A DNA stretch of 64,000 bases from Candidatus Heimdallarchaeota archaeon (lineage in GTDB: Archaea; Asgardarchaeota; Heimdallarchaeia; JABLTI01). Positions 27,263 to 39,215 of the stretch are shown here, one piece after another. Below the pieces are notes generated by a model, which made no database searches, was not told where the DNA came from, and saw nothing but the letters and a program-made list of their open reading frames with translations. A program made the translations under genes and the position numbers. The stretch is from NCBI GenBank assembly GCA_019056785.1, contig DXJV01000029.1:89731-153730 (forward strand), read 5' to 3'. How positions within the stretch are numbered: the first letter of the stretch is position 1; the number at the start of each line of letters is the position of its first letter.

Positions 27263-30200
27263 TTATGCTGCTTCTCCAAAAAATTCTGTTAAACTTCGCT
27301 GAGTTTTCTTTTCTTGTATAAAATATTCATTAATCGCTTCATTGAATAGCTCCAACCGTTGTTTCAAATAATTAGAAAGATTGTAATCTTCCATTAATTT
27401 CTTTGCAGTCTCATAATATTTGGTAATGGTCTTTTTATGTACCGTCAAAATAATTTTCCCGCCATCTGGACAATTGGTACATTTTCCAGTGAGGGGCATT
27501 CGTCGATATTTTGTATTACATTTAACACAGCGGAAAGTTTGGGCACCAAAGGCACGGAGACAACCGATCATGTCCGGGAAGAAATGTTTATTGATTACGC
27601 GTTCTGCCACATCCTCAAGGTCCACTGCTCGAATCATTTTTGCTATTTTTAACTGCGCCTCGAGTTTATCGACCATTTTCCCCAGCCGGGAGTAGATGGT
27701 AGATGGCGGTCCGAGGGCAATATCGCTTGTTTCATGCGTATAATGGAAGTTTTCGAATTGCTCTAGTGTATCTAAACGATTAGCAATAAGGTCAATAATT
27801 TGAGCGATTTTTTTCGAGTCTATAAAATCATAAGAACGTTCGTAGAATTCCAGCGGGTAGCGTTTAACACAATCAACAGCATGAGATTCGTCATCCACTT
27901 CATTTGGGTTAATGACTGTTCCGAGAGTAAGAGGGGCGTCCATTGAACCTCCGCGTGTAACGGGGAGGAACTGTTTGGAAAAATCGAGAAAGCCCTCAAG
28001 CATGAGAATAATGGCATCTTCATCCCCATCACAATTTCGCCTTTTTGCCGCATGCCAATAAGGATGTGCGAGATTCCCTTTGACAGTTGTAAAACCGACT
28101 ATTCTACCGGTTATTCCTGAGGAAGTGTGAGGAGCTAACCCTATGACTAGATGCCCGATGAGATCAGATATCTTCTTAATGTTATAAAATCTCGGGAGAC
28201 CATAAACAGACTCGAGTAAATCATCTACATACCGGGCCACCCGCACTAAAAATTCACCATTGTCGATATTAAGAACGACATCCTGTATTTTCAATTCCAG
28301 AATCTGGTTATCAGTAGTGAGTGGTTGCCCTCGGATGTCTTTTGTATAACCAATTGCTCGCAATTGTTCCACTGAAGCACTTACTTCCTTGGGTTTAAAA
28401 TGCATTAGAGGAATATCGGTGGAATCAAAACGGATTGTTCCGTCTTTATAGACGTTCAAATCATGTCGTGCCCTTAAAAAGCCTTTTTCGAGAAGCTCGG
28501 GAATCTTGTTGCGATTCATTAGTTTCTTGACACCTTTAGTGTTTGCCGGAATGGACCCCCCTAAGGTTTTTTTCACTCGAGTAATATCTTTACTAAGATC
28601 CACCATGCGTGTTGTATAGGGGACGGGATAACGATTGCATTGCTCACAAAAATCATTTTCAGCCAACTCCCGCCCACAAGAAGGACAACTTGTTAGGATT
28701 TTTGTGGGGATGGCACATTTCGGACACAAGGAAAGATGTGTAATTGTATTGCATTTTGGACATTCTCTTTGAACAACAGTAATCTCGATCGTCTTCTTTT
28801 TTGCTGCCTCCAGAATTAAACGACTATTACCATTTCCTTCCATTTCGAGTGGAAAGAGAGAATGCACCGGGGGCTTCATTTTGCGTTCTTTCGCCTTTTC
28901 TGGTCGCCCCATCCTTGCACCCGAATAGATTGGGATTTTCATTTTAATCTCGAATGGCACAAGATGCTTGAAAGGAGGACGTACGTCTCGCTCGATTTCT
29001 TCGGGGTGTAAGGTAGTGTTTTTCAATTGCATGCAATGTTCAAGGATTAAATTACATTCATCAATGATGATATAACCGTCTTTAATTTTATGAGGAAGTC
29101 CAATGCGCTCTAACAGAACTTTTGCATTAAAGGATGGATCAAGAACAAGAGCATCTCGCTTTTTCGCAAGATTAATTATGAGTTCTTTGTCAGTCACACG
29201 AGCACGTAAAATTTTGTCGCGCAGCTCAAAAAATTCATCAAAGGTTATATCATGCCAGGCATAGGTATAATAGGGATGAAGGGGAATCATCAACTCATAA
29301 CTAAAACTTAAAGCCTCGAGTTGGGTAGGCTTGGTTGTTATTGGGTTGCTAAGAAACTCTTGTAATCGCTCTGGCGACATGCCCAACAGCTTAGCTGCAA
29401 TTTGCAAATCGTTATTGCATTTTGATTTAAGCCGCGACTCGAGATAGAGAACCCACCATTCTTCCACAAAACCCGAAGGAATTAAGGGATGGTTATTTTC
29501 CAGAAACTCACCAAAACCGACTAGTAAATCCCCTAGAAAAAGGATTTTAGCAATACGCTTCTGGAGTTTTATCGCTTGTCCATAGGTCTCGATTTTCACC
29601 ACAGAACCATCTTTCAACAAAACGGTGGGCCCTTCTATCGAATCCACTGGCATGACAACACTGCCTTTGCCGGGGCGTTCTGTCCGGATGTGTGTTCCTG
29701 GTGCCAAGAAATCCATGAGAACTTTCATCGTAGCAGGGTGGATGCCAATTCCTGCTAAACCAGTATTCCTTGAGTGTCCATAGCGTATACGAAATCCCCC
29801 TGCTTTGGAAGGGTGCGCGAAAATTGGCCGTCCACCGATGATATCCTTAATATAGCCATAAGAGGGTTGTGTTTTAGCCTTAAAATCTTCTTTCTCTTTT
29901 TGTGCTTGTTTCTCGGAGATGGCTACTTTGAGTGATTTTAACCAATCCCATCCCGACAAACCAACGGTTTTGACTGTCTTCAAGATTTTCATTGCCCGGC
30001 CAACAATACCATCATTTAAGACCAGGCATGCTCCCCCTCGTAAGGTATTTGTCTCGACACGCGGGAGGTCCCGAAAAGCAGACACTTCATCGGGGTTTGT
30101 GCTTTCTCCTGTGACTTCTACAGGCAAATTTTGAACGGCAAACTCGATCTGTTCTGCAGTTGTAGGAATTTGTAAATGTACAACGCGTTTATAGAGATCT

Positions 30201-30766
30201 ATCTCCTCCACAAAGCGCATCATTTCTTGTCGTGTGGCTTTGTAACGAGATAACTTCAAAACCTTCCGGACATGGTCCGATATGAGAACGGTTAAAGCTG
30301 CTTCCGTACCCCCTGCAGAACGTATTGGCCCCGCAAAATAAACCGCAAGATACTTGGTATTATCATCATTTGATTTAATCTTTACTTTTGCGATTCCTTC
30401 CAATGGAGCAGCTGTAACTCCTTCTGTAAGAATGGCCAGCGCGGTCCGGATAGCTATGTCGGCTTTCTTTTCGTCTGAGGAGCTGGGATCAATGAACCGT
30501 CCCTGAGCAATTTCTTCGGCAATTTTGAACGCAACATTCTCTCGATCCATTGTTGTACTTAAATGTCGGATCTGCTCCGCTATTCCTGGCAACCCCATCA
30601 ACCCTTCCACTTTGCCGGCAACATCTTTTGCCAGGTGGATCTCTACTTCTGGTTCTGGGTCCAAGCCTTTTCGACGCGCTTCTTGTGCCACCTGATAAAT
30701 CCGGCGCACTTCCTCTTCAAGTGCATTGAAATAAGATTTCATCTGATCTGAAGTTGCCAGTTCCAC
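27263..30766 (-). CDS. polC: DNA polymerase II (PolD) large subunit DP2, no intein
   Basis: AGPIRSAGGT, GGFRIRYG, GARMGRPEKAK, HAAKRRNCDGDED catalytic motif, C-terminal Zn finger and PIP box QRSLTEFF. Confidence 0.98.
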   Translation of the reverse strand: MELATSDQMKSYFNALEEEVRRIYQVAQEARRKGLDPEPEVEIHLAKDVAGKVEGLMGLPGIAEQIRHLSTTMDRENVAFKIAEEIAQGRFIDPSSSDEKKADIAIRTALAILTEGVTAAPLEGIAKVKIKSNDDNTKYLAVYFAGPIRSAGGTEAALTVLISDHVRKVLKLSRYKATRQEMMRFVEEIDLYKRVVHLQIPTTAEQIEFAVQNLPVEVTGESTNPDEVSAFRDLPRVETNTLRGGACLVLNDGIVGRAMKILKTVKTVGLSGWDWLKSLKVAISEKQAQKEKEDFKAKTQPSYGYIKDIIGGRPIFAHPSKAGGFRIRYGHSRNTGLAGIGIHPATMKVLMDFLAPGTHIRTERPGKGSVVMPVDSIEGPTVLLKDGSVVKIETYGQAIKLQKRIAKILFLGDLLVGFGEFLENNHPLIPSGFVEEWWVLYLESRLKSKCNNDLQIAAKLLGMSPERLQEFLSNPITTKPTQLEALSFSYELMIPLHPYYTYAWHDITFDEFFELRDKILRARVTDKELIINLAKKRDALVLDPSFNAKVLLERIGLPHKIKDGYIIIDECNLILEHCMQLKNTTLHPEEIERDVRPPFKHLVPFEIKMKIPIYSGARMGRPEKAKERKMKPPVHSLFPLEMEGNGNSRLILEAAKKKTIEITVVQRECPKCNTITHLSLCPKCAIPTKILTSCPSCGRELAENDFCEQCNRYPVPYTTRMVDLSKDITRVKKTLGGSIPANTKGVKKLMNRNKIPELLEKGFLRARHDLNVYKDGTIRFDSTDIPLMHFKPKEVSASVEQLRAIGYTKDIRGQPLTTDNQILELKIQDVVLNIDNGEFLVRVARYVDDLLESVYGLPRFYNIKKISDLIGHLVIGLAPHTSSGITGRIVGFTTVKGNLAHPYWHAAKRRNCDGDEDAIILMLEGFLDFSKQFLPVTRGGSMDAPLTLGTVINPNEVDDESHAVDCVKRYPLEFYERSYDFIDSKKIAQIIDLIANRLDTLEQFENFHYTHETSDIALGPPSTIYSRLGKMVDKLEAQLKIAKMIRAVDLEDVAERVINKHFFPDMIGCLRAFGAQTFRCVKCNTKYRRMPLTGKCTNCPDGGKIILTVHKKTITKYYETAKKLMEDYNLSNYLKQRLELFNEAINEYFIQEKKTQRSLTEFFGEAA

Positions 30767-30853: not shown

Positions 30854-32455
30854 TTATGATAGAAGGAAGGAAGCATTACTAATAATTGGTGCTCCAACGA
30901 GTGATGGTACCAATCCCAAGACGATTATTCCAAGGGCAATAACAATATTAATGAAATTTATGAAACTCAAATCCGCGCCTATACCCTTTGGTTGTATAAA
31001 TGTTGCTTGTGCTGGGGGATTGTCAAAAACAAATTGCTTGAGGAGAGAAAGAAAACCGACTAACAAAAGCAAAAGAACAAAGATCAATGCAATAACAACG
31101 CCGATGAACTCGAGTTTGACTAAGGAAAAAAGAAGGAGATAGATATTCACCCCACCAAATGTTGGAAGAAGACCAATAAGAGAAGCAAGGCCGATGAGAA
31201 AAGTGAAGACAGTGAGAGGATATTCTTTACCAATGCCCTGATAGTTAATTACTTCTTCTTGTGCAGGCCTTTTCGACAAGAGATGCTCTTTCGCTGTCAA
31301 TGCAAGATAGCCGGCAAAAAAGACATTAACAATCTGCAGAGCAGTAAAGCCTAAAGATTCTTGCAAAAGCCCCGATTGCATTACAATAGTACTACTGTCT
31401 ACAATCATTCCCGTTGCAAACCCTGTAAGAACAATCCCGAGATTTGTAATAAGTGCAAAGATGACAATTTTCGAAAAGGTTTCTGCGGTTTTCTTTTTCT
31501 TAGCAACTTGATAAGAAAATAAGAATACACCTTGAAATGCTGTTAGCAATCCTATAATTAAAAGGACAAACGAATAACCATTGTTTGTAAGGACGGTCGG
31601 GGAAAAAACTACATACACAACCTTAATGATAGCCAAAAGGGCCAGACCACCTGTGATACTTGCGAAGGTTTGTTGAATAGTAGCAGAGCTGCCGCTAATG
31701 GCCTTTGGCATCCAAAGATTTAGAGTGATAAGATTCGCAAATAAGCCAAACCCAACGATAAATAAAGCAATTATAAGATAGATCGCAAACAAGCCATTTT
31801 GCGCTTTTACCGCCAGAAGTAGTTCTGGATGGTTTTTAATGTAATCAAGATTTACCGACCCTAGAAAGCCATAGCTCAAAATTACTCCTAAGAGGAGAAA
31901 GAAGAGTGCTAATGCGATAAGCAGATATGCTTTAACTACTTCTTGTCGTAAAAGCAGTTTATTTTGTTCGTTTGCCAGTAATAGTATAAGAGAAATACCA
32001 ACTATCGCCCAGGCTAAAAATATAGTGAAAAGATCATTGGCAATGATTGAAAAATTCATGCCGATGCTAAAGAAGAGAAGAGAAAGCAATGAAGACAATT
32101 GCCGTCGCTGCTCTCTTCTTTTTGTTGTTTCATAAACGAACATTAATATCAGCAAAGTGTTGATAATGATAAGCAACCAACCACTGAAACCATTAACCTT
32201 CATTTGAACACTGGTAGAAGGGCTATAACCTATTCCTATAGTACTGTTGTAAAAACCATAGAGAGTTTTTGTAGGGGAAGCCTTCACTTTGAAATTTACT
32301 GCAGCAAAAATAGCAGTATTAATTATCATATTTCCTGTGGCCAGTTCTGCTGCAAAATTACTCAGCCATTTTCGCAAACCAAAAAGGATGATAGCAATGA
32401 AGAAGGTTAGAAACATCGGAGAGAGCAACAAGAAATTGATTGAGACTTCAGCCAT
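30854..32455 (-). CDS. NuoN/MrpD-like antiporter-fold membrane subunit (degenerate)
   Basis: About 14 TM helices. DLFTIFLAW, G.VNL, LW.P.A and GL.PTFGG are recognisable, but the TM5 Glu and TM7 Lys are replaced. Confidence 0.75.
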   Translation of the reverse strand: MAEVSINFLLLSPMFLTFFIAIILFGLRKWLSNFAAELATGNMIINTAIFAAVNFKVKASPTKTLYGFYNSTIGIGYSPSTSVQMKVNGFSGWLLIIINTLLILMFVYETTKRREQRRQLSSLLSLLFFSIGMNFSIIANDLFTIFLAWAIVGISLILLLANEQNKLLLRQEVVKAYLLIALALFFLLLGVILSYGFLGSVNLDYIKNHPELLLAVKAQNGLFAIYLIIALFIVGFGLFANLITLNLWMPKAISGSSATIQQTFASITGGLALLAIIKVVYVVFSPTVLTNNGYSFVLLIIGLLTAFQGVFLFSYQVAKKKKTAETFSKIVIFALITNLGIVLTGFATGMIVDSSTIVMQSGLLQESLGFTALQIVNVFFAGYLALTAKEHLLSKRPAQEEVINYQGIGKEYPLTVFTFLIGLASLIGLLPTFGGVNIYLLLFSLVKLEFIGVVIALIFVLLLLLVGFLSLLKQFVFDNPPAQATFIQPKGIGADLSFINFINIVIALGIIVLGLVPSLVGAPIISNASFLLS

Positions 32456-32456
32456 T

Positions 32457-34376
32457 TTAACCGAGACCTCCTACTAAGATTAAGACTGAGGTTAAAACCA
32501 CCAGTGAAAGTATTGCCCAAATTATGCTGGCAAAGATGGACTTTAGCCGTATCCAAGCAAAAAACCTTTGAAGAAAATTAAGCGGCTTTCGCAGGAATAT
32601 TTCGCTTGTTTTATGAAGGTAATAGCCATTATTGATAAGCCGTTCAATACTCACGACAAACTTAGTTGCAGCAAGTTTAAGGAGAAACGGTCGCTCTGGC
32701 TTCCAGTAAAGCACAAAGGCGGCAACAAAAACACTAACAGTAAGTACCAAAAGTATAGGGGAAAGGACAATGTCACTAAAGAAGACTATAGGATAGTCCA
32801 AAGCATAGATTTTATTCAAAAGACCTGAAAAGAGGAAACTCTCCGGATAATTATAAAAGAGCAGGAAAATTCCAGCCACAAGCGACCAGCCTAGAGAGAG
32901 GAAGAGAGAAGAGAGAGAGGTTTTACTTATACCTCGGACTACATAATCGCTTGATAATTCTCTCTGCATTACTTTTTGAAAAGCACGTACAGTTAAAAAT
33001 GTCAATACGAAGAAGCATACAATGGCCACAACGAGTATCCCTTTCATAGTGGGGACCCGACTAGTTTTAAGAGCAGTAAAAAGCATATCACGACTAAAAT
33101 AAAGGCTTGTTGGGAAAATACCTGCAAAATTTACAATGGCTATTATACCAAGTATAAACAATACCCGATGCTCTTGCTTCATTCCTGCAACTTTTGGCAA
33201 ATCAGCCACACGTAACGACTCGAGTATTGCCCCAAAAACAAATGCTACAACAAAGAGAGATGGTAACCCAACGATAAGATTGAAGATTGCTGCGACATAA
33301 CCAACAGTAGACCCCGTACTAAAAGCAAGGAACGAGAAGCTTTGTTGTGCTATAGCTAAACCAATTAAAAGACGATTGATATTTTTTGTAGCAAAAAGTG
33401 TAAGAACGATAAAAAGGAGGGTGATCGCCGCAAACCAACCAATTAACTGTAATACCGAAGCAGAAAACAAAGGCGTTGCTGTTCCAACTTCTGCTGCACG
33501 AGAGTAAAAGAATGGTTTGAATACTAACAATAAGAAAAGCCCACTACTACCAATAGTTGTTGTCGTAAGCAACATCGAAGCAGGTAAAGGTGTTTTTGTA
33601 AGGTCGTTATCTTGCTGTTCGCTTGTTAATGGCCAGAAGAGGAAAGGGACTTGCGCACCTTTTATTAAAGCACCAAGCGCTAAGAGCATTCTTATGAGAA
33701 GTCGCGTATTGGAACTTGAGCCTAAAAGTATCTTTTCCGGTGGAGTCGGCCACAAAGTCAAAAGGTCAGCCAAATTGGCACTCTTAAAGGAAACAATCAT
33801 AAAACTAAAACTGAGAAGGATGAGAATGTCAGAGCAAAAATTGATAATCAGGTATCGCTTAGCAGCACTCGCGGCTTTTTGCCCTTCTTGCCCGGATTTC
33901 TTGTACCAATGAGAGATTAAAAAGAAGGCTCCAATGGAGGCAATTTCCAGGCCGCCAAATAACCAGTAAAGATTATCAGCAAAAATTGCAAAAAGTATTG
34001 CTGCTTGTGTCAATAGATAAAAGAACCAATATCTCGTTCTGGAAGAATCGTAACGCATAAAGGAAATAGAATATAAAGCTAACAATGCTCCCAGATTTGA
34101 AATGATACAAGCAAAGACGATAACCAATTCAGTTAGCCGGATGCCAGCGCTAATACCCGGCAACCATTCAACTGTAAAAGAGCCATAAGCATGCAAATGT
34201 CTAAGTAGAAACCAAGAGGTTATTGCTGTAGGTAAAAAGATAGTGAAAAACAACGTCCAGTCTCGAGTGCGGCCTTTAGCTGCAACAGACTCCTCCAATT
34301 GGGAGAGTAACAAATTAAAAAGGATGCCGATTAGAGGAAAAAGTATAACAAAGAAAGCAGTAATTGATCCGTTCAT
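32457..34376 (-). CDS. NuoL/MrpA-like antiporter-fold membrane subunit (degenerate)
   Basis: W.PG, YS..FM..D....RY, E(IASIG)..LISHWY, KGAQVPF..W and G.FP...YFSRD. Its start overlaps the upstream stop. Confidence 0.82.
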   Translation of the reverse strand: MNGSITAFFVILFPLIGILFNLLLSQLEESVAAKGRTRDWTLFFTIFLPTAITSWFLLRHLHAYGSFTVEWLPGISAGIRLTELVIVFACIISNLGALLALYSISFMRYDSSRTRYWFFYLLTQAAILFAIFADNLYWLFGGLEIASIGAFFLISHWYKKSGQEGQKAASAAKRYLIINFCSDILILLSFSFMIVSFKSANLADLLTLWPTPPEKILLGSSSNTRLLIRMLLALGALIKGAQVPFLFWPLTSEQQDNDLTKTPLPASMLLTTTTIGSSGLFLLLVFKPFFYSRAAEVGTATPLFSASVLQLIGWFAAITLLFIVLTLFATKNINRLLIGLAIAQQSFSFLAFSTGSTVGYVAAIFNLIVGLPSLFVVAFVFGAILESLRVADLPKVAGMKQEHRVLFILGIIAIVNFAGIFPTSLYFSRDMLFTALKTSRVPTMKGILVVAIVCFFVLTFLTVRAFQKVMQRELSSDYVVRGISKTSLSSLFLSLGWSLVAGIFLLFYNYPESFLFSGLLNKIYALDYPIVFFSDIVLSPILLVLTVSVFVAAFVLYWKPERPFLLKLAATKFVVSIERLINNGYYLHKTSEIFLRKPLNFLQRFFAWIRLKSIFASIIWAILSLVVLTSVLILVGGLG

Positions 34377-34795
34377 TATTTCGTACCTCCTTTCTGTAAT
34401 GAAGATTCTCGTGAAAAGATTTCTGGCTCACCGATGAAATCTTTTTCCTCATCCTGTGGTTCTTGCTCTTCTTCCAGCTCAAAGTTGAAATCTATAAGAA
34501 CTGTCGCACCTGTTTGGCGTAAACGCCGTTCAATGGTTAAACCAATGGCAAATAAGACAAAACTTACGACCAGTATGAGGATAGAGAAAATCTGAGGGAG
34601 AGCATCTTGTAAGCCACTTGATTCCATACGCAAGGCAGCTAAGGCAAGAAGGAGAATATTTGCAGAAGAAAATAGTAATTCTACGCCAAAAATTAACCGA
34701 AGAACTGTTTTACCGGTTATAAGGGCATACAAGCCAATGCTCAGCAAGATTATGAACGTTAACAAAACATAGGGTGTACCCGTAAGCCAATCCAT
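34376..34795 (-). CDS. NuoK/MrpC-like small membrane subunit with acidic tail
   Basis: SIGLY.L......LR.IFGVELL...AN; 3 TM helices. Confidence 0.8.
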   Translation of the reverse strand: MDWLTGTPYVLLTFIILLSIGLYALITGKTVLRLIFGVELLFSSANILLLALAALRMESSGLQDALPQIFSILILVVSFVLFAIGLTIERRLRQTGATVLIDFNFELEEEQEPQDEEKDFIGEPEIFSRESSLQKGGTK

Positions 34796-34801
34796 CGTTT
34801 C

Positions 34802-35116
34802 TTAAAGCCTCCTTCTTTTTTCGTTGTTTCTTTGTGGATGGGCAATAAATGAATCAATTTTGAGAAGAAACGACGAAGCAACGACACAGATAATCAACAA
34901 AAAAGCAACAAGAAATAAATCAAAAACACGTAATGACCACATGGCTTCAGCTAGATTTTTAACCCCGCTTCCCACAGAACTTACAAGAGCACTAATGTCT
35001 GAAAAGACAAAAAAAACAGTGATAAAAATAACAACAAGAAAACTCACTGTTACTATTCCTATCCCTCGAATGAACCATTGTGAGATTCTCTTTTGGGTTC
35101 GAAGCTTATTACTCAT
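34802..35116 (-). CDS. NuoJ C-terminal-half-like membrane protein
   Basis: Two TM helices; V..LAEAMWS..VFDLFLVAFLL resembles NuoJ TM5. It lies immediately upstream of the NuoK-like gene. Start set at ATG 35116. Confidence 0.55.
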   Translation of the reverse strand: MSNKLRTQKRISQWFIRGIGIVTVSFLVVIFITVFFVFSDISALVSSVGSGVKNLAEAMWSLRVFDLFLVAFLLIICVVASSFLLKIDSFIAHPQRNNEKRRRL

Positions 35117-35132
35117 GCTTTTTTCACTCTCA

Positions 35133-35564
35133 TCATAATTTTCGCATTTCTTTTTGATGTACTCGTTTAGAACGTATTTTGTAATAATCAACAGCAAAGA
35201 TGCTGAAACCTATTAATAATAATACAAATAAGAAGAAGGGCCACTTTGGTTGAGAACCTCCTTCCACAACATGAAACACCTGGTAAGAGAAGAATAAGAA
35301 GAAAACAAGCATTAGAAATACGACGATTATAATACTATACAGAAAGAAAGGGTTGAATGCCTTTTCCGTTTCAGGATTAGCTTTTAAAGGGGTGATGCCT
35401 TTATGCCCTTGGCTTTTTTCTTTGATTTGTTGCTCCTCTTTTTTCTGCATTGTTAAAGTTATTGCAATTAAAAGGAGAATCAGTAAGTTTAGGAGGACCA
35501 TTCCAAAGAGTAAGCCTTCAATCAACAATGTTCTCATCTTCCAAGTATTTATACTTCTTATCAA
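35133..35564 (-). CDS. NuoA-like three-TM membrane protein (degenerate)
   Basis: TM1, long loop (K...G), TM2 (FF.Y.II.VVF), TM3, as in NuoA. First gene of the Nuo-like run. Confidence 0.55.
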   Translation of the reverse strand: MIRSINTWKMRTLLIEGLLFGMVLLNLLILLLIAITLTMQKKEEQQIKEKSQGHKGITPLKANPETEKAFNPFFLYSIIIVVFLMLVFFLFFSYQVFHVVEGGSQPKWPFFLFVLLLIGFSIFAVDYYKIRSKRVHQKEMRKL

Positions 35565-35590
35565 GCATAAAAGCTTTTATTATTAATATT

Positions 35591-38293
35591 CTATTTGGTT
35601 CGCTTTGTGATTGTGAGTTGACTACAGATTTGCTGATAAGTCCCTAAGAGAAGCAGCTCGAGATTTGGAACGCCGCTATGAAGCCTTTTACCAAGTGTAA
35701 TGATTTTTTTCAAACTGGCTTCAATTGTCGCATAAGCCCGTCTAAAGGCATCTGAAATGATCAACTCACTAAGGTTGTTAATTTCCTCATTATCAAATGG
35801 TTGATAAGGATAGATTCTTCCCAGAATTTCCGGCGTTTCGCTATCGTTAGTTGTAATAAAGAAACGTGCGATCTCTTCAGAAACTGTGGGGAGTTTTATT
35901 GGCGAGAAACTAAAAAGATAATTCCGTTCTTCTTTTGCTTTAAACAATGGAATCGATGTGAAGACTTTCAAAGGCTTGTTATGTAACAATCTTTTCCCGA
36001 TTTGTCTGAAAATTTCCTGTTTAATTTTATAACTGGTTTTGACGAACAGTTGTCGCTGCTTTGTGCTTTCTGTCAAGCTTTCAAGTCGTTGATTGAGCTC
36101 CTGAGGGAGGGCAAGCCGCAGATACGAGTCTTGGATTTCCTTATGAAGTCGTGGTGAAAGCGGTTCTGGAAGTTCCATGCCAATATTGAAAAGAGTCCTG
36201 ATAGCATCATTAAGATTGCACCCCCATTTCTTAAAGGCTGTAAAACATTCTCGTGTTTCTTTTGGGTAATCAGACTCTTTGGAAGGAAGAGGTACCGCAA
36301 GCAATTGTAGAGAGGTGACGTTATTTGTTAATCCTTTAAAATTCACAGCTGTTGCCTCTGAGATCATCGCAAGCTCTTTTGTCATCAACCGCTTATTCAT
36401 CGTCTTTAATTCAGCTAACAACTTACGAGCATGTGGGATACTTCGTTCTTGTATTCTCCCTAAAAAGCCGGTTTCCAAATAAGATTTTTTATTTTCTGCT
36501 GTTATTTTTCCCTCAACTGCATCCTCCTCTATGTCCTTTAGAATTACAAGAATAGCTTTTGCTGTGGCTTGAAAGGCTTCATCTACATGTTGTAGGTCAA
36601 TCTCCACAAGAGGTTCAGTATTGTAGGTAGCGCCCTCTCCTGGCGAAAATGCGCGCACCCGGTTTTCCACGTCTTCAATTGCTCGTTCTATTTGACCTAT
36701 TAGCCATGTCCGCGGACCACTAAATGCTTGAATTAAATTCAGGATCAATCCAATCTCAATGGTTAAGGATTCCGAAATATTGTAAAATAATGCTCCCTCA
36801 CGTCCGATGGAGGGGAGAGTACCATTTATGAAAGAAAGGCTGCCGTAGAGATAATTGTGCGCCCAGAAGAAGGTGTCACTAATCGCCCTAAGAAGTGCCT
36901 GATTGTTTACTTGTTGACTTTCAGGCGTTGGTTTTGGCAATGTTATTGCGTCTTCCTTTCTCTTTGCCTTTTTGGCTTTTTTAGCTGGGAGGGGTCTTTC
37001 CTCAGATGAGGTTAGAGCAACTGATGGTATAGCCGGTGCTTGGGAGGAAGGAGATAAGGAAGCGTTTTTGGTTTGATTTGTAGCGTTTATTTCCCACATT
37101 AAGGCTTGAATTTCGACGGGCTTTGTAAATAAATCATTAATAATAGTAACAAACGTTGTACGATAGTTTGCAGGTGTAATTTCATTTGATGACTGAAGAA
37201 TTGCTCTTAGAAAAGCCTCTTTTAAGGCAAATTTCTCCAATAATTTACAAAGTTGTTTTAAATATTGCACTTCGAACGGGCGATTGCCAATGGCTTGTAG
37301 ATAACTTCGGATGAATTGCCAGCTGACAAGGTTGGTGTCTGAGAGCGACAGTTTCTTGACAACAGTGTCAATAGCCCGTAAACTTATCCCGATCGGACCC
37401 CTGCTTTTCAAAAGATTTTCTAGAAAGCGTTCAAAAACAGCCGGGAATTCCCGTTCATAGTAAGTTGTAAGGCGTTTAACAATATTACCAGTATAAAGTA
37501 AGAAAGGAATTAAACCCCCTTTCAAAACGAAATTGAAAAGGGTGGCGGTAACCTGCTCGCGATATTGTTCTTTGGGAAAGTTTTCCTGGAATGAGTTTTT
37601 GAGTGAAAGAAATCCCTCCCAGTAAGATTGTTTGCCAAAAAAAGCTGTGAAGGGCAGCTTTTCAAAGAACAAGGGATAAGATTGTTCTTCTACCCATTTA
37701 GAAAAATTGGCGATTTCTTCCTCTAGGAGAGAATCGTTGGAGGGAAAATTAGAAAAACGATCTTTTTCCTGGAGAAATTTAGGGGTTTCATAAAAGAGTG
37801 ACCTCTTCGCACGCTTACGGAAATCAGCGATGGCTTCTGCGAGGATTTCAATTGTCTCTCTACTCGAGGGAATATACCCTTCGACATTTCCTGTGGCCAG
37901 TTTCTTTGCCAGATGTGGCTTTGAACAAATTACTACCATTAAAGAATAACATAATTCGCTCAACGAAAGCTCTTGTGCACGGGTTAATTCTCCTTCTTGT
38001 ACAATGATGGCCACCTTCATTTGAGCGCTATGAAGGAGCTCAGGATTAACCAACCCCAGAGAATTATTAATCTGTGTTAGATGACGAATATAAATGTGAG
38101 CATTAAAAAGCTCAGAATGACGCAATTCTCCTTGTTGGAGAAGCTCTTGAAACATTGTTGACATGCCTGCAAGAGCGCCACTAAGAAGGGTTGCATCGGT
38201 TTGATCCTCCTGAAAAAGACCCGCCGTGATAAAGGGAACGGAACCTGTCATAACCACAAGATCAATTTTTTTCGCTTGTAATTCCATTCCCAT
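35591..38293 (-). CDS. Large hypothetical protein with N-terminal longin/roadblock-like domain
   Basis: 900 aa. The N-terminus D..LLSGAL.GM..MF.E.....ELR resembles the Asgard longin-type motif; the rest is unassigned and mostly helical. Confidence 0.6.
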   Translation of the reverse strand: MGMELQAKKIDLVVMTGSVPFITAGLFQEDQTDATLLSGALAGMSTMFQELLQQGELRHSELFNAHIYIRHLTQINNSLGLVNPELLHSAQMKVAIIVQEGELTRAQELSLSELCYSLMVVICSKPHLAKKLATGNVEGYIPSSRETIEILAEAIADFRKRAKRSLFYETPKFLQEKDRFSNFPSNDSLLEEEIANFSKWVEEQSYPLFFEKLPFTAFFGKQSYWEGFLSLKNSFQENFPKEQYREQVTATLFNFVLKGGLIPFLLYTGNIVKRLTTYYEREFPAVFERFLENLLKSRGPIGISLRAIDTVVKKLSLSDTNLVSWQFIRSYLQAIGNRPFEVQYLKQLCKLLEKFALKEAFLRAILQSSNEITPANYRTTFVTIINDLFTKPVEIQALMWEINATNQTKNASLSPSSQAPAIPSVALTSSEERPLPAKKAKKAKRKEDAITLPKPTPESQQVNNQALLRAISDTFFWAHNYLYGSLSFINGTLPSIGREGALFYNISESLTIEIGLILNLIQAFSGPRTWLIGQIERAIEDVENRVRAFSPGEGATYNTEPLVEIDLQHVDEAFQATAKAILVILKDIEEDAVEGKITAENKKSYLETGFLGRIQERSIPHARKLLAELKTMNKRLMTKELAMISEATAVNFKGLTNNVTSLQLLAVPLPSKESDYPKETRECFTAFKKWGCNLNDAIRTLFNIGMELPEPLSPRLHKEIQDSYLRLALPQELNQRLESLTESTKQRQLFVKTSYKIKQEIFRQIGKRLLHNKPLKVFTSIPLFKAKEERNYLFSFSPIKLPTVSEEIARFFITTNDSETPEILGRIYPYQPFDNEEINNLSELIISDAFRRAYATIEASLKKIITLGKRLHSGVPNLELLLLGTYQQICSQLTITKRTK

Positions 38294-38483
38294 AATTGCT
38301 CACTTCAACTAACAAACTTTACAAAATGTGAAGATAATAATTAATAAAATCTTTCTTTAATTCTACCGAAGTATTTAGTTTGCTGCGAAAGGATAAAAAC
38401 CGCTGCCTTTTAAAGTAATAGCTTAACCACTCAAAAAAACTGAAAAATAAAAATGAGGAAAAGGAAAACATCAAATAAGGAAA

Positions 38484-39215
38484 TTAAATTTGATGCATCC
38501 ATAAAAGACTTCTATAAACATTTCGTATGCGGTCCTTTAATTCCGCTGCGGCTTTCGTTTCGTTCATCTTTTCAAGACCTTTAAGTACTTTGCGGCAGTA
38601 GTCACACTCTTCACCATTGATGACTTTTCGATTGTCAATATCAAGAATAACTTCTGTTTCATAGTAATCCTTTAAGTTAGGAGCAATGCCAATTATGTCA
38701 TAATCTCTTGGGTCAACAAACGTTTCAGTGTACCACGTGATTCGCAAGTCTTTCTTATGAACAAACAATTTAAGTGTGGCAATGGCAATTTCCATGAGAG
38801 CCAATTCGCCGGTCACAACAACTGTTTTACCGGTCATTACAGGCTTCATAACATATTCAAGGTTGTTGCCAAAAGTTTTGAGCATCAAGGTAATGCTTGC
38901 ACGGGCTTCAGGACGAGTTGCAGCAGAAGGCATTGCGGCACTTGCCATACCGGATGCTTGAGGGGTGGTAGCAGCAACAGAACGAGCTGCAACCTCTTCG
39001 CGACTCGTCCGCGCAATGGTAGAAGCACGATGTTGCCGTAAAGCGAGATTTTTATCTAAAAGTAAGGTAATGACGTGATCATCGTGCAAATAAGACACTT
39101 GCCATAAGCCGCCCACCTGGGTCTTGAGATCGTCAACATAAATAGGAATAGTAATGCTTTTATTGCAACCTTTGCATACGAGTGAAATTTCTTTTAAGGG
39201 TACCCTAGCAGACAA
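38484..39215 (-). CDS. Zn-binding N-domain plus folliculin/DENN C-terminal-like domain protein
   Basis: CKGC...H.DH...L.LD.N N-terminal domain, Ala-rich linker, then VMTGKTVVV...L....I.TL.......RI..Y......D..GI.P resembling the folliculin cDENN region. Confidence 0.65.
   Translation of the reverse strand: MSARVPLKEISLVCKGCNKSITIPIYVDDLKTQVGGLWQVSYLHDDHVITLLLDKNLALRQHRASTIARTSREEVAARSVAATTPQASGMASAAMPSAATRPEARASITLMLKTFGNNLEYVMKPVMTGKTVVVTGELALMEIAIATLKLFVHKKDLRITWYTETFVDPRDYDIIGIAPNLKDYYETEVILDIDNRKVINGEECDYCRKVLKGLEKMNETKAAAELKDRIRNVYRSLLWMHQI

Follow-up and report, generated by a model that had tools for sequence, protein, structure and literature searches.

A complex-I-like membrane arm in one family of Heimdallarchaeia, probably a hydrogenase remnant, is maintained by purifying selection

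What is a complex-I-type membrane arm for when no catalytic subunit is encoded beside it? The question is raised by a locus of Candidatus Heimdallarchaeota archaeon (GenBank assembly GCA_019056785.1, contig DXJV01000029.1). The stretch of 64,000 nucleotides that we analysed, here called the window, carries on its minus strand, at positions 30854-35564, five tightly packed open reading frames (ORFs) for a NuoA-like, a short NuoJ-like, a NuoK-like, a NuoL-like and a NuoN/MrpD-like membrane protein, which we designate A', J', K', L' and N' (Table 1); no gene for NuoB, NuoC, NuoD or NuoH lies inside the window. Textbooks treat complex I and its hydrogenase relatives as redox-driven pumps. To our knowledge, the known derivatives of these enzymes have altered redox chemistry, as in Mbx/MBS, Ehr and NDH-1, or do without the peripheral arm, as in Mrp, and they keep iron-sulfur (Fe-S) cofactors or the charged membrane axis. 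We report that the five arm genes are under purifying selection and are not decaying; that degenerate genes for NuoD, NuoH and NuoC at two other loci (D', H' and C'), described here for the first time, are probably linked to the arm; and that the arm is probably, though on balance and with no great assurance, the remnant of a two-pump complex-I-like group-4 [NiFe]-hydrogenase that has lost its catalytic parts and has been retained for another use.

ORF analysis, Pfam searches and profile comparisons confirm five linked membrane genes in nuo order, as had been proposed from the letters of the window alone (hereafter the sequence-only reading). Successive genes in the order A'-J'-K'-L'-N' are spaced by 16, 6, -1 and 1 bases, the start of L' overlapping the stop of K' by one base. 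By profile comparison, K', L' and N' are secure homologues of complex-I-type subunits. L' scores 68.8 bits against PF00361 (Proton_antipo_M; cut-off 21.5 bits), its top NCBIfam model is NuoL at scores far below the cut-offs (128 vs. 407.5 bits and 124 vs. 556 bits for TIGR01974 and NF005141, respectively), and a profile of its orthologues matches NuoL (1e-36), Nqo12 (7e-33) and MrpA (7e-33) in the PDB, with a hidden-Markov-model alignment that extends to the start of the Nqo12 lateral helix. The AlphaFold2 (AF2) model of L' (predicted template-modelling score, pTM, 0.83) contains the NuoL beta-hairpin and, past transmembrane helix (TM) 15, a lateral helix of about 38 residues (572-609) and an anchor helix (613-635), the predicted local distance difference test (pLDDT) being below 50 for parts of 585-621. 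The 18 best Foldseek matches of this model are all NuoL/ND5/NdhF chains, matched over the full length with query template-modelling scores (TMq) of 0.71-0.75. No PF13244, PF20501 or PF04039 domain is found in L', and a tree of L-type subunits places L' inside the NuoL-type group and outside MrpA (Shimodaira-Hasegawa-like approximate likelihood ratio test, SH-aLRT, 93), on a stem of 2.3 substitutions per site. N' scores 51.2 bits against PF00361; NCBIfam ranks NuoN/MrpD first, and the best PDB profile matches are MbhH (3e-23) and MrpD (5e-20). K' scores 50.9 bits against PF00420 (cut-off 26.1), remains below the NCBIfam equivalog cut-offs (34.6 vs. 128), matches NdhE (2e-12) and then MrpC and Nqo11 in the PDB, and matches heimdallarchaeial NuoK with 98% probability in hhalign. 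The label 'complex-I/Mrp-like' given by the sequence-only reading stands in its complex-I (or hydrogenase) part; its Mrp part is weaker, L' grouping with the NuoL type and not with the MrpA type.

The names of the two smallest subunits rest on weak profile matches together with the conserved A-J-K-L-N order. A', which is likely a NuoA-like subunit, has NuoA-like topology (TM1, a long charged loop, TM2, TM3) and 11 orthologues, 23-32% identical, with an invariant C-terminal tail, SKRTVQRDMR. In hhalign comparisons with heimdallarchaeial references, A' matches NuoA at P=2e-5 (52-78% probability), NuoJ at 8e-3 and NuoK at 0.5; in a phmmer search with the single sequence in a 21-sequence set, it matches NuoA of the Heimdallarchaeaceae at E=3e-5. 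PDB profile matches of A' to E. coli NuoA are weak (E ~0.07) and lie amid designed helical proteins, and neither the protein scan nor the genome scan yields a NuoA (PF00507) match. J' is tentatively the C-terminal part of NuoJ. It matches NuoJ in hhalign at P=1.6e-4 (24% probability) over NuoJ positions 75-177, with an LW..R..D motif common to both, vs. P of at least 0.18 (global mode) or at least 0.019 (local mode) for NuoA or NuoK, and it occupies the position that NuoJ occupies in an intact H-A-J-K-L-N locus. J' gives no Pfam match (PF00499 included) and no PDB profile match, and it has only two TM helices vs. five in NuoJ. The start of A' is probably the ATG at 35537; that of J' is most likely at 35116, where the protein does not overlap A' and is close in length to its orthologues of 108-109 amino acids (aa), in which QWF.RGIG and W..RV.DL are invariant. 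The strongest conservation in A' and J' lies in the juxtamembrane cytoplasmic tails (SKRTVQRDMR and QWF.RGIG), which points to protein contacts.

The sequence-only reading also held that charged residues used for proton translocation are replaced throughout the arm. We tallied these residues in MAFFT columns against intact heimdallarchaeial homologues (L', n=24; N', n=8; K', n=12); the tallies agree with HMMER profile alignments to solved NuoL/Nqo12/MrpA, MbhH/MrpD and NdhE/Nqo11 chains. The motifs that had been quoted are all present in the window proteins (FLML in A'; GVELL and LVVS in K'; GGLEIAS, LIKGAQ, SMLLT and GLPSLF in L'; LAWAIVG and GLFANL in N'), and both kinds of alignment place them at the canonical positions, so that the charge losses are not a shift of register. 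In N', the losses claimed for the TM5 Glu (0/8; V/A/I instead) and the TM7 Lys (0/8; F/L instead) are borne out, and extend to the TM8 Lys, the TM11 His/His/Lys and the TM12 Lys, each likewise 0/8. In L', the TM8 His and the second His and the Lys of TM11 are each present in 0/24 sequences and the first TM11 His in 14/24; the TM12 Lys is present in 9/24, the others having Arg (11) or Leu/Tyr (4), for a Lys-or-Arg total of 20/24. The NuoL losses described earlier are thus real, but L' keeps more than had been claimed: the TM7 Lys and the TM6 Asp in 24/24 and the TM12 Asp in 22/24, besides the TM12 Lys-or-Arg. Conversely, the TM5 Glu, listed earlier as kept, occurs in 18/24 and is replaced in 6/24, including the closest relative of the window, which has Ala. 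Three residues of L', D256, D258 and K261, are newly invariant. In K', the TM2 Glu is present in 9/12 sequences, the other three having V/I. The second NuoK Glu is absent, as had been stated, but intact heimdallarchaeial NuoK proteins lack it too, so its absence is ancestral and is no loss specific to the module. At the TM2 'FD' acid position of A', the window has FLML and three relatives only have VFE. Taken together, the alignments indicate that the continuous Glu/Lys/His proton axis is lost in the arm, completely in N' and centrally in L'. By the same columns, the TM5 Glu and TM12 Lys of L' are dispensable within the family, and the K' Glu dispensable in sublineages. L' is the only subunit that, to judge from its residues, could still bind or conduct an ion.

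Loss of functional residues can reflect decay or reuse, and dN/dS ratios bear on the choice. Pairwise Nei-Gojobori dN/dS at unsaturated dS (0.2-0.9) is 0.08-0.16 for L', 0.11-0.12 for N', 0.10-0.20 for K', 0.10-0.15 for J' and 0.20-0.27 for A'; the flanking genes for p243, a 243-aa protein, and the PolD large subunit give 0.10-0.18 and 0.06-0.08. The same holds for the off-window genes H' (0.12-0.18), D' (0.13-0.20) and C' (0.10-0.22). Across the family the eight primed proteins are 26-50% identical and the flanking housekeeping genes 73-90%. The L' family comprises 25 clusters, 39-65% identical, of 637-647 aa save one partial record of 567 aa; all cluster names are Heimdall or Asgard, and the next score falls from 446 to 73 bits. 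Of 400 Asgard genomes, only those of one GTDB family have orthologue-level L' (>600 bits), and there it is present in 12/12. When 1.84 billion representatives are scanned exhaustively with HMMER, three full-length sequences and two fragments are returned, after which the score drops from 657 to 233 bits. The locus order p243-[p900]-A'-J'-K'-L'-N'-PolD large subunit, in which p900 is a 900-aa protein, recurs in at least 13 contigs. With dN/dS of 0.08-0.27 and with order and length conserved over deep divergence, the earlier proposal of selection, not decay, is upheld.

The sequence-only reading had regarded the module as an orphan, or else as the partner of a redox module encoded elsewhere. It is probably not an orphan: a divergent NuoD'-NuoH' pair and a divergent NuoC' at two other loci have the same lineage pattern. 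The second proposal fares no better, in that D' is without NiFe motifs, H' is without its acidic loop and no spare NuoB was found in the genome. D', whose gene adjoins H' in 10 loci, retains one Cys and neither NiFe motif (L1/L2). H' reaches only 48.8 bits against PF00146 and lacks the acidic TM5-6 loop, the canonical AELEE.PFD...E...EY being replaced by KFDQPYFDR...NW. Every genome of the family (12/12) has an H' orthologue, at 34-46% identity; among the other 71 genomes of the class, matches stay at or below 55 bits, the best being NuoH of H-A-J-K-L-N loci. C', found by a genome scan with PF00329, lies 53 kb away from the module on the contig that also contains the window; it scores 23.4 bits (cut-off 22.5). 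Its AF2 model has pLDDT 85, and the top 50 Foldseek matches are all NuoC-type (TMq 0.64-0.76), with Nqo5, NdhJ, NDUFS3, MbsK, fused NuoCD and HycE among the chains matched. Of the 12 genomes of the family 11 have C', the exception being a 64%-complete genome; none of the 71 others has it. Two further, lineage-specific membrane proteins accompany these loci. A 207-aa protein (p207) with about six TM helices and no Cys, 56-65% identical, follows D'-H' in 12/12 genomes of the family; no Pfam family matches it, nor is it similar to NuoA, NuoJ or NuoK, and it is found only in the family (loci L047-L057 compared). A 792-aa protein (p792) with a Glu/Lys-rich N-terminus, several TM helices, a large outer domain and no Pfam family follows C' in 9/10 loci (C11:67562-70513 = L058:5563-8513; L060-L069). 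Complex prediction of H' with A', J' and K' gave ipSAE values of 0.00-0.01; run without controls, these speak neither for nor against binding.

Two side observations concern these loci. The D'-H' pair of four genomes is interrupted by an opposite-strand insertion, a gene for a sequon-rich anchored protein of 344 aa (L048:301-1335). As candidates for NuoC, a pair of small ORFs at C11:70-72 kb (L044:133-513; L044:1596-2009) were considered and rejected, both being negative with Pfam and phmmer.

The five genes are not one half of a sole, divided complex I, for, as the sequence-only reading had asked, the genome contains a separate intact complex-I-type operon, A-B-C-D-H-I-J1-J2-K-L-M-N. The D subunit of this operon keeps both NiFe motifs (RVCGIC and DPCFSC) and therefore represents a hydrogenase active site on a three-pump complex-I chassis. 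The genome has five PF00361 genes only. We found no spare NuoB in it, all four of its NuoB-type (PF01058) genes being assigned to other enzymes: the canonical operon, a group-3 hydrogenase beside an FAD/NAD subunit, an HdrA-MvhD-MvhG-MvhA set, and a NuoI-NuoB-NuoD triple fusion. In the fusion, two 4Fe-4S motifs and the NuoB ligands CC...C...CP are intact, with one Cys left per NiFe motif; at full length the fusion occurs in 2/12 genomes of the family (70% identity), and the others have no unfused orthologue of its D part. Its closest relatives in the Heimdallarchaeaceae are separate B and D genes. Of the two group-3-type [NiFe]-hydrogenase loci, at C57:3553-9014 (L045) and C11:78300-81382 (L044:8300-11382), one is an HdrA-MvhD-MvhG-MvhA-HycI set and the other has large and small subunits beside an FAD/NAD-binding subunit. 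Selection, the separate operon and the broken proton path together make repurposing, as proposed earlier, the right frame.

From what was the arm repurposed? The next tier of L' matches (165-230 bits, full-length coverage) is the NuoL of a locus in the sister family (NCBI name Heimdallarchaeaceae), where NuoH-A-J-K-L-N stands beside a divergent NuoC-D-I-B with NiFe cysteines, HycI, HypE and HypF (L037); the next-best matches of L' and H' are the L and H genes of one such H-A-J-K-L-N locus. Since A-J-K-L-N occurs within this hydrogenase locus, the order in the five-gene module is inherited. The Heimdallarchaeaceae locus gives the best non-self scores of D', H', K', L', N' and A', in each case above the score with the canonical paralogue of the same genome. 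In TM7 of the Heimdallarchaeaceae-type distal subunit, Thr replaces Lys and 'LN.W' replaces 'P.H.W'; N' has the Asn of 'LN.W' in 8/8 sequences, and the canonical N and M of the genome keep the Lys and the His. Heimdallarchaeia have been reported to contain complex-I-like group-4 [NiFe]-hydrogenases whose membrane arm is shortened (bioRxiv 10.1101/2024.07.04.601786), and the Heimdallarchaeaceae H-A-J-K-L-N locus matches that type.

Comparison with four known systems sets out what the primed set shares and what it has lost. With the heimdallarchaeial group-4 hydrogenase it shares the A-J-K-L-N subunit set and order, two antiporter-type subunits and the distal TM7 'LN.W'; the hydrogenase, however, keeps both NiFe CxxC motifs, NuoB and NuoI, the acidic loop of NuoH, and a Glu/Lys/His axis that is whole in L and largely so in N. 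In the primed set these features are lost or absent, J' is cut to two helices and the genes are scattered over three loci. With the arm of respiratory complex I (PDB 4he8, 3rko, 8e9g) it shares the fold in L' and K', together with a lateral helix and anchor of the NuoL type, and a nuo-like order, but it has no NuoM, its central hydrophilic axis is broken and no cofactor-bearing redox arm is present. With Mrp (CPA3) and the MBH/MBS modules (PDB 6z16, 7qru, 6cfw, 6u8y) it shares two antiporter-type subunits, a NuoK/MrpC-like subunit, a 'DP..Q' loop motif common to K' and MrpC, and the absence of NADH-side modules; the MrpA C-terminal domain and the essential Mrp Lys/Glu are missing. Ehr (energy-converting hydrogenase-related) complexes are reportedly, in work by Marreiros and colleagues from 2013, group-4 relatives whose large subunit lacks the NiFe cysteines, and the same is said of Mbx/MBS. 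The primed set resembles these complexes in being hydrogenase-derived with a large subunit that no longer binds NiFe. Ehr, Mbx and MBS complexes retain their Fe-S subunits as well as a charged axis in the membrane, and are regarded as redox enzymes; in the primed set, by contrast, NuoB is absent, no dedicated NuoI has been identified and the pump residues are gone. The literature on Asgard archaea yielded nothing specific on a cofactor-less or degenerate complex-I-like module.

According to the reading that we favour, in the ancestor of the family a two-pump hydrogenase would have lost its NiFe site, its NuoB Fe-S subunit and its charged pump axis; the degenerate hydrogenase would then have dispersed over three loci, gone through a burst of change and, from then on, been maintained by purifying selection. 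C', D', H', A', J', K', L' and N' may still assemble as one complex-I-shaped membrane complex without NiFe site and NuoB. We infer joint assembly because the primed set consists of exactly the subunits that carry no Fe-S cluster, because H' and A' would have a role only in linking D' to the arm, and because the genome, with only five PF00361 genes, has no other spare arm. In such a complex redox-driven pumping would be excluded because the cofactors are missing, and canonical proton transfer along the arm because the axis is missing; the complex would most likely be a structural or regulatory membrane platform. It is an attractive but tentative proposal that a complete complex-I-shaped pseudo-enzyme, C'D'H'A'J'K'L'N', possibly with p207 and p792, is kept for a non-redox role; candidate roles would be membrane organisation, ion-gradient sensing and the docking of other proteins.

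Several observations weigh against this reading. Hydrogenase ancestry is inferred from scores, gene order and one shared motif; the tree of L-type subunits leaves the sister group of L' unresolved, and C' scores slightly higher against canonical NuoC than against Heimdallarchaeaceae NuoC, both scores being weak. The assignment of J' is likewise weak, as its hhalign probability indicates. The arm, D'H' and C' loci are never adjacent in any contig examined, and co-occurrence in one clade amounts to a single evolutionary event; the pattern is common to many lineage-specific genes, the unrelated-looking p207 being just as regular, and all the genes fall into the same three subclades. The source genome is 82.5% complete, which limits the absence of a spare NuoB, and a NuoI-like ferredoxin may be a partner, Fer4 proteins being numerous. 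With its near-universal TM7 Lys, TM6 Asp and TM12 Asp, L' may have some ion-linked activity.

The last point leads to the alternative that survives best, although we consider it unlikely: that A', J', K', L' and N' form a stand-alone, Mrp-style transporter or channel that moves an ion or senses membrane potential, with D', H' and C' belonging elsewhere. The compactness of the five genes, apparently with their own promoter, and their separation from D'H' and C' would suit such a module, as would the retained charges and new invariant residues of L' and the best structural matches of N', MbhH and MrpD. But N' lacks the canonical charges, and two of those in L', the TM5 Glu and the TM12 Lys, differ among family members. 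The NuoL-type grouping of L' is again at odds with an Mrp-type system, and no MrpB/E/F/G-type genes are seen, A' and J' giving no Mrp family match in Pfam or NCBIfam. NuoA contacts NuoH in complex I and has no role in Mrp, which leaves a NuoA-like subunit without a place in a stand-alone transporter. Finally, D', H' and C' need a membrane arm, and the count of PF00361 genes leaves no spare one.

An accessory role, in which the primed subunits would provide the intact 11-subunit NiFe complex-I-type enzyme with another distal arm, a scaffold for assembly or a regulator, strikes us as improbable. Its analogy is with the paralogue-derived assembly factors of mitochondrial complex I. Among the matches listed, which cover seven of the eleven other family genomes, a canonical NuoL of ~710 aa accompanies L' in every genome, and the concentration of A' and J' conservation in cytoplasmic tails suggests protein contacts. 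However, the parallel set of C', D', H', A', J', K', L' and N' looks like a complete complex and not like an add-on, and it derives from another enzyme type than the canonical operon.

It is very unlikely that the arm instead serves the Fe-S-bearing NuoC and NuoI-B-D fusion, giving a redox-active Ehr/Mbx-like complex. The fusion has its Fe-S motifs and NuoB ligands and no adjoining membrane genes of its own; yet D', whose translation is coupled to that of H', would face competition from the D domain of the fusion, and the presence of the full-length fusion in 2/12 family genomes, vs. 12/12 for the arm and for D'H', rules out the NuoC plus fusion pair as an obligatory partner. That the genes are a non-functional relic, pseudogenes on their way out, is scarcely credible: functional residues are lost throughout and identity is 26-46% vs. 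73-85% in flanking genes, but in all contigs examined the five frames, at 39-65% identity, are open and do not vary in length, and their dN/dS, like that of H', D' and C', is near the neighbours' values.

The coordinates of the arm, of its neighbours and of the off-window loci are collected in Table 1. The AT-rich spacer upstream of A' may be an archaeal promoter of the module's own. The soluble p900, which the sequence-only reading had suggested for a joint structure prediction with the five subunits, lies between p243 and the module at about 4/10 orthologous loci only (53% identity where found) and is therefore no core subunit; it looks like an insertion into a conserved locus. p243 is encoded upstream of the module at every orthologous locus and is 80-85% identical across the family, with a CxxC at the N-terminus, a CxxC at the C-terminus and a linker rich in Ala/Ser/Thr; it has no PDB sequence match, and neither p243 nor p900 has a family in Pfam or NCBIfam. 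The p243 gene is followed at 38440-38470 by T-runs that resemble an archaeal terminator; these and its conservation suggest that p243 is transcribed separately. The gene immediately downstream of the module, for the PolD large subunit (DP2), is intein-free in the window; in four related genomes (L006:13611-18521, L011, L014 and L016) DP2 is 1636-1661 aa long, with an Intein_splicing/LAGLIDADG insertion in the catalytic domain.

Table 1. Coordinates of the arm genes, their neighbours and the other complex-I-type loci of the genome (window positions unless a contig is named)
Feature	Position	Strand	Description
A' (s1)	35133..35537	-	134 aa; three TM helices, NuoA-like; alternative TTG start at 35564 would give 143 aa
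J' (s2)	34802..35116	-	104 aa; two TM helices; tentative C-terminal (TM4-5) half of NuoJ
K'	34376..34795	-	139 aa; NuoK/MrpC-like; acidic C-terminal tail
L'	32457..34376	-	639 aa; NuoL-like, antiporter-type; short lateral helix and C-terminal anchor helix
N'	30854..32455	-	533 aa; NuoN/MrpD/MbhH-like, antiporter-type; all canonical channel charges replaced
AT-rich spacer with TATA-like boxes	35538..35590	-	upstream of A'; read directly from the sequence
p900	35591-38293	-	900 aa; soluble; between p243 and the module
p243	38484-39215	-	243 aa; upstream of the module
PolD large subunit (DP2)	27263-30766	-	1167 aa; directly downstream of the module
NuoD'-NuoH' locus	contig C100:18484-21363 (L043:9484-12363)		D' 377 aa, H' 352 aa; four-base overlap
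NuoC'	contig C11:67562-67969		136 aa
Canonical A-B-C-D-H-I-J1-J2-K-L-M-N operon	contig C41:42304-52633 (L010:8074-18633)		NuoJ split in two genes
NuoC and NuoI-NuoB-NuoD triple fusion	contig C31:8128-10624 (L042)		fusion 671 aa; no membrane genes adjoining

The primed set appears without NiFe site, without NuoB and without most of the pump axis, yet purifying selection constrains it as strongly as the neighbouring housekeeping genes. Should all eight proteins assemble, they would be a rare case of a whole multi-subunit energy converter preserved as a pseudo-enzyme, in archaea that are close to the eukaryotic stem and whose membrane biology is largely uncharted. If this is true, the family would show, as an experiment of nature, which parts of the complex-I scaffold are important independently of catalysis. 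The primed genes should not be counted as respiratory capacity when the metabolism of Heimdallarchaeia is reconstructed.

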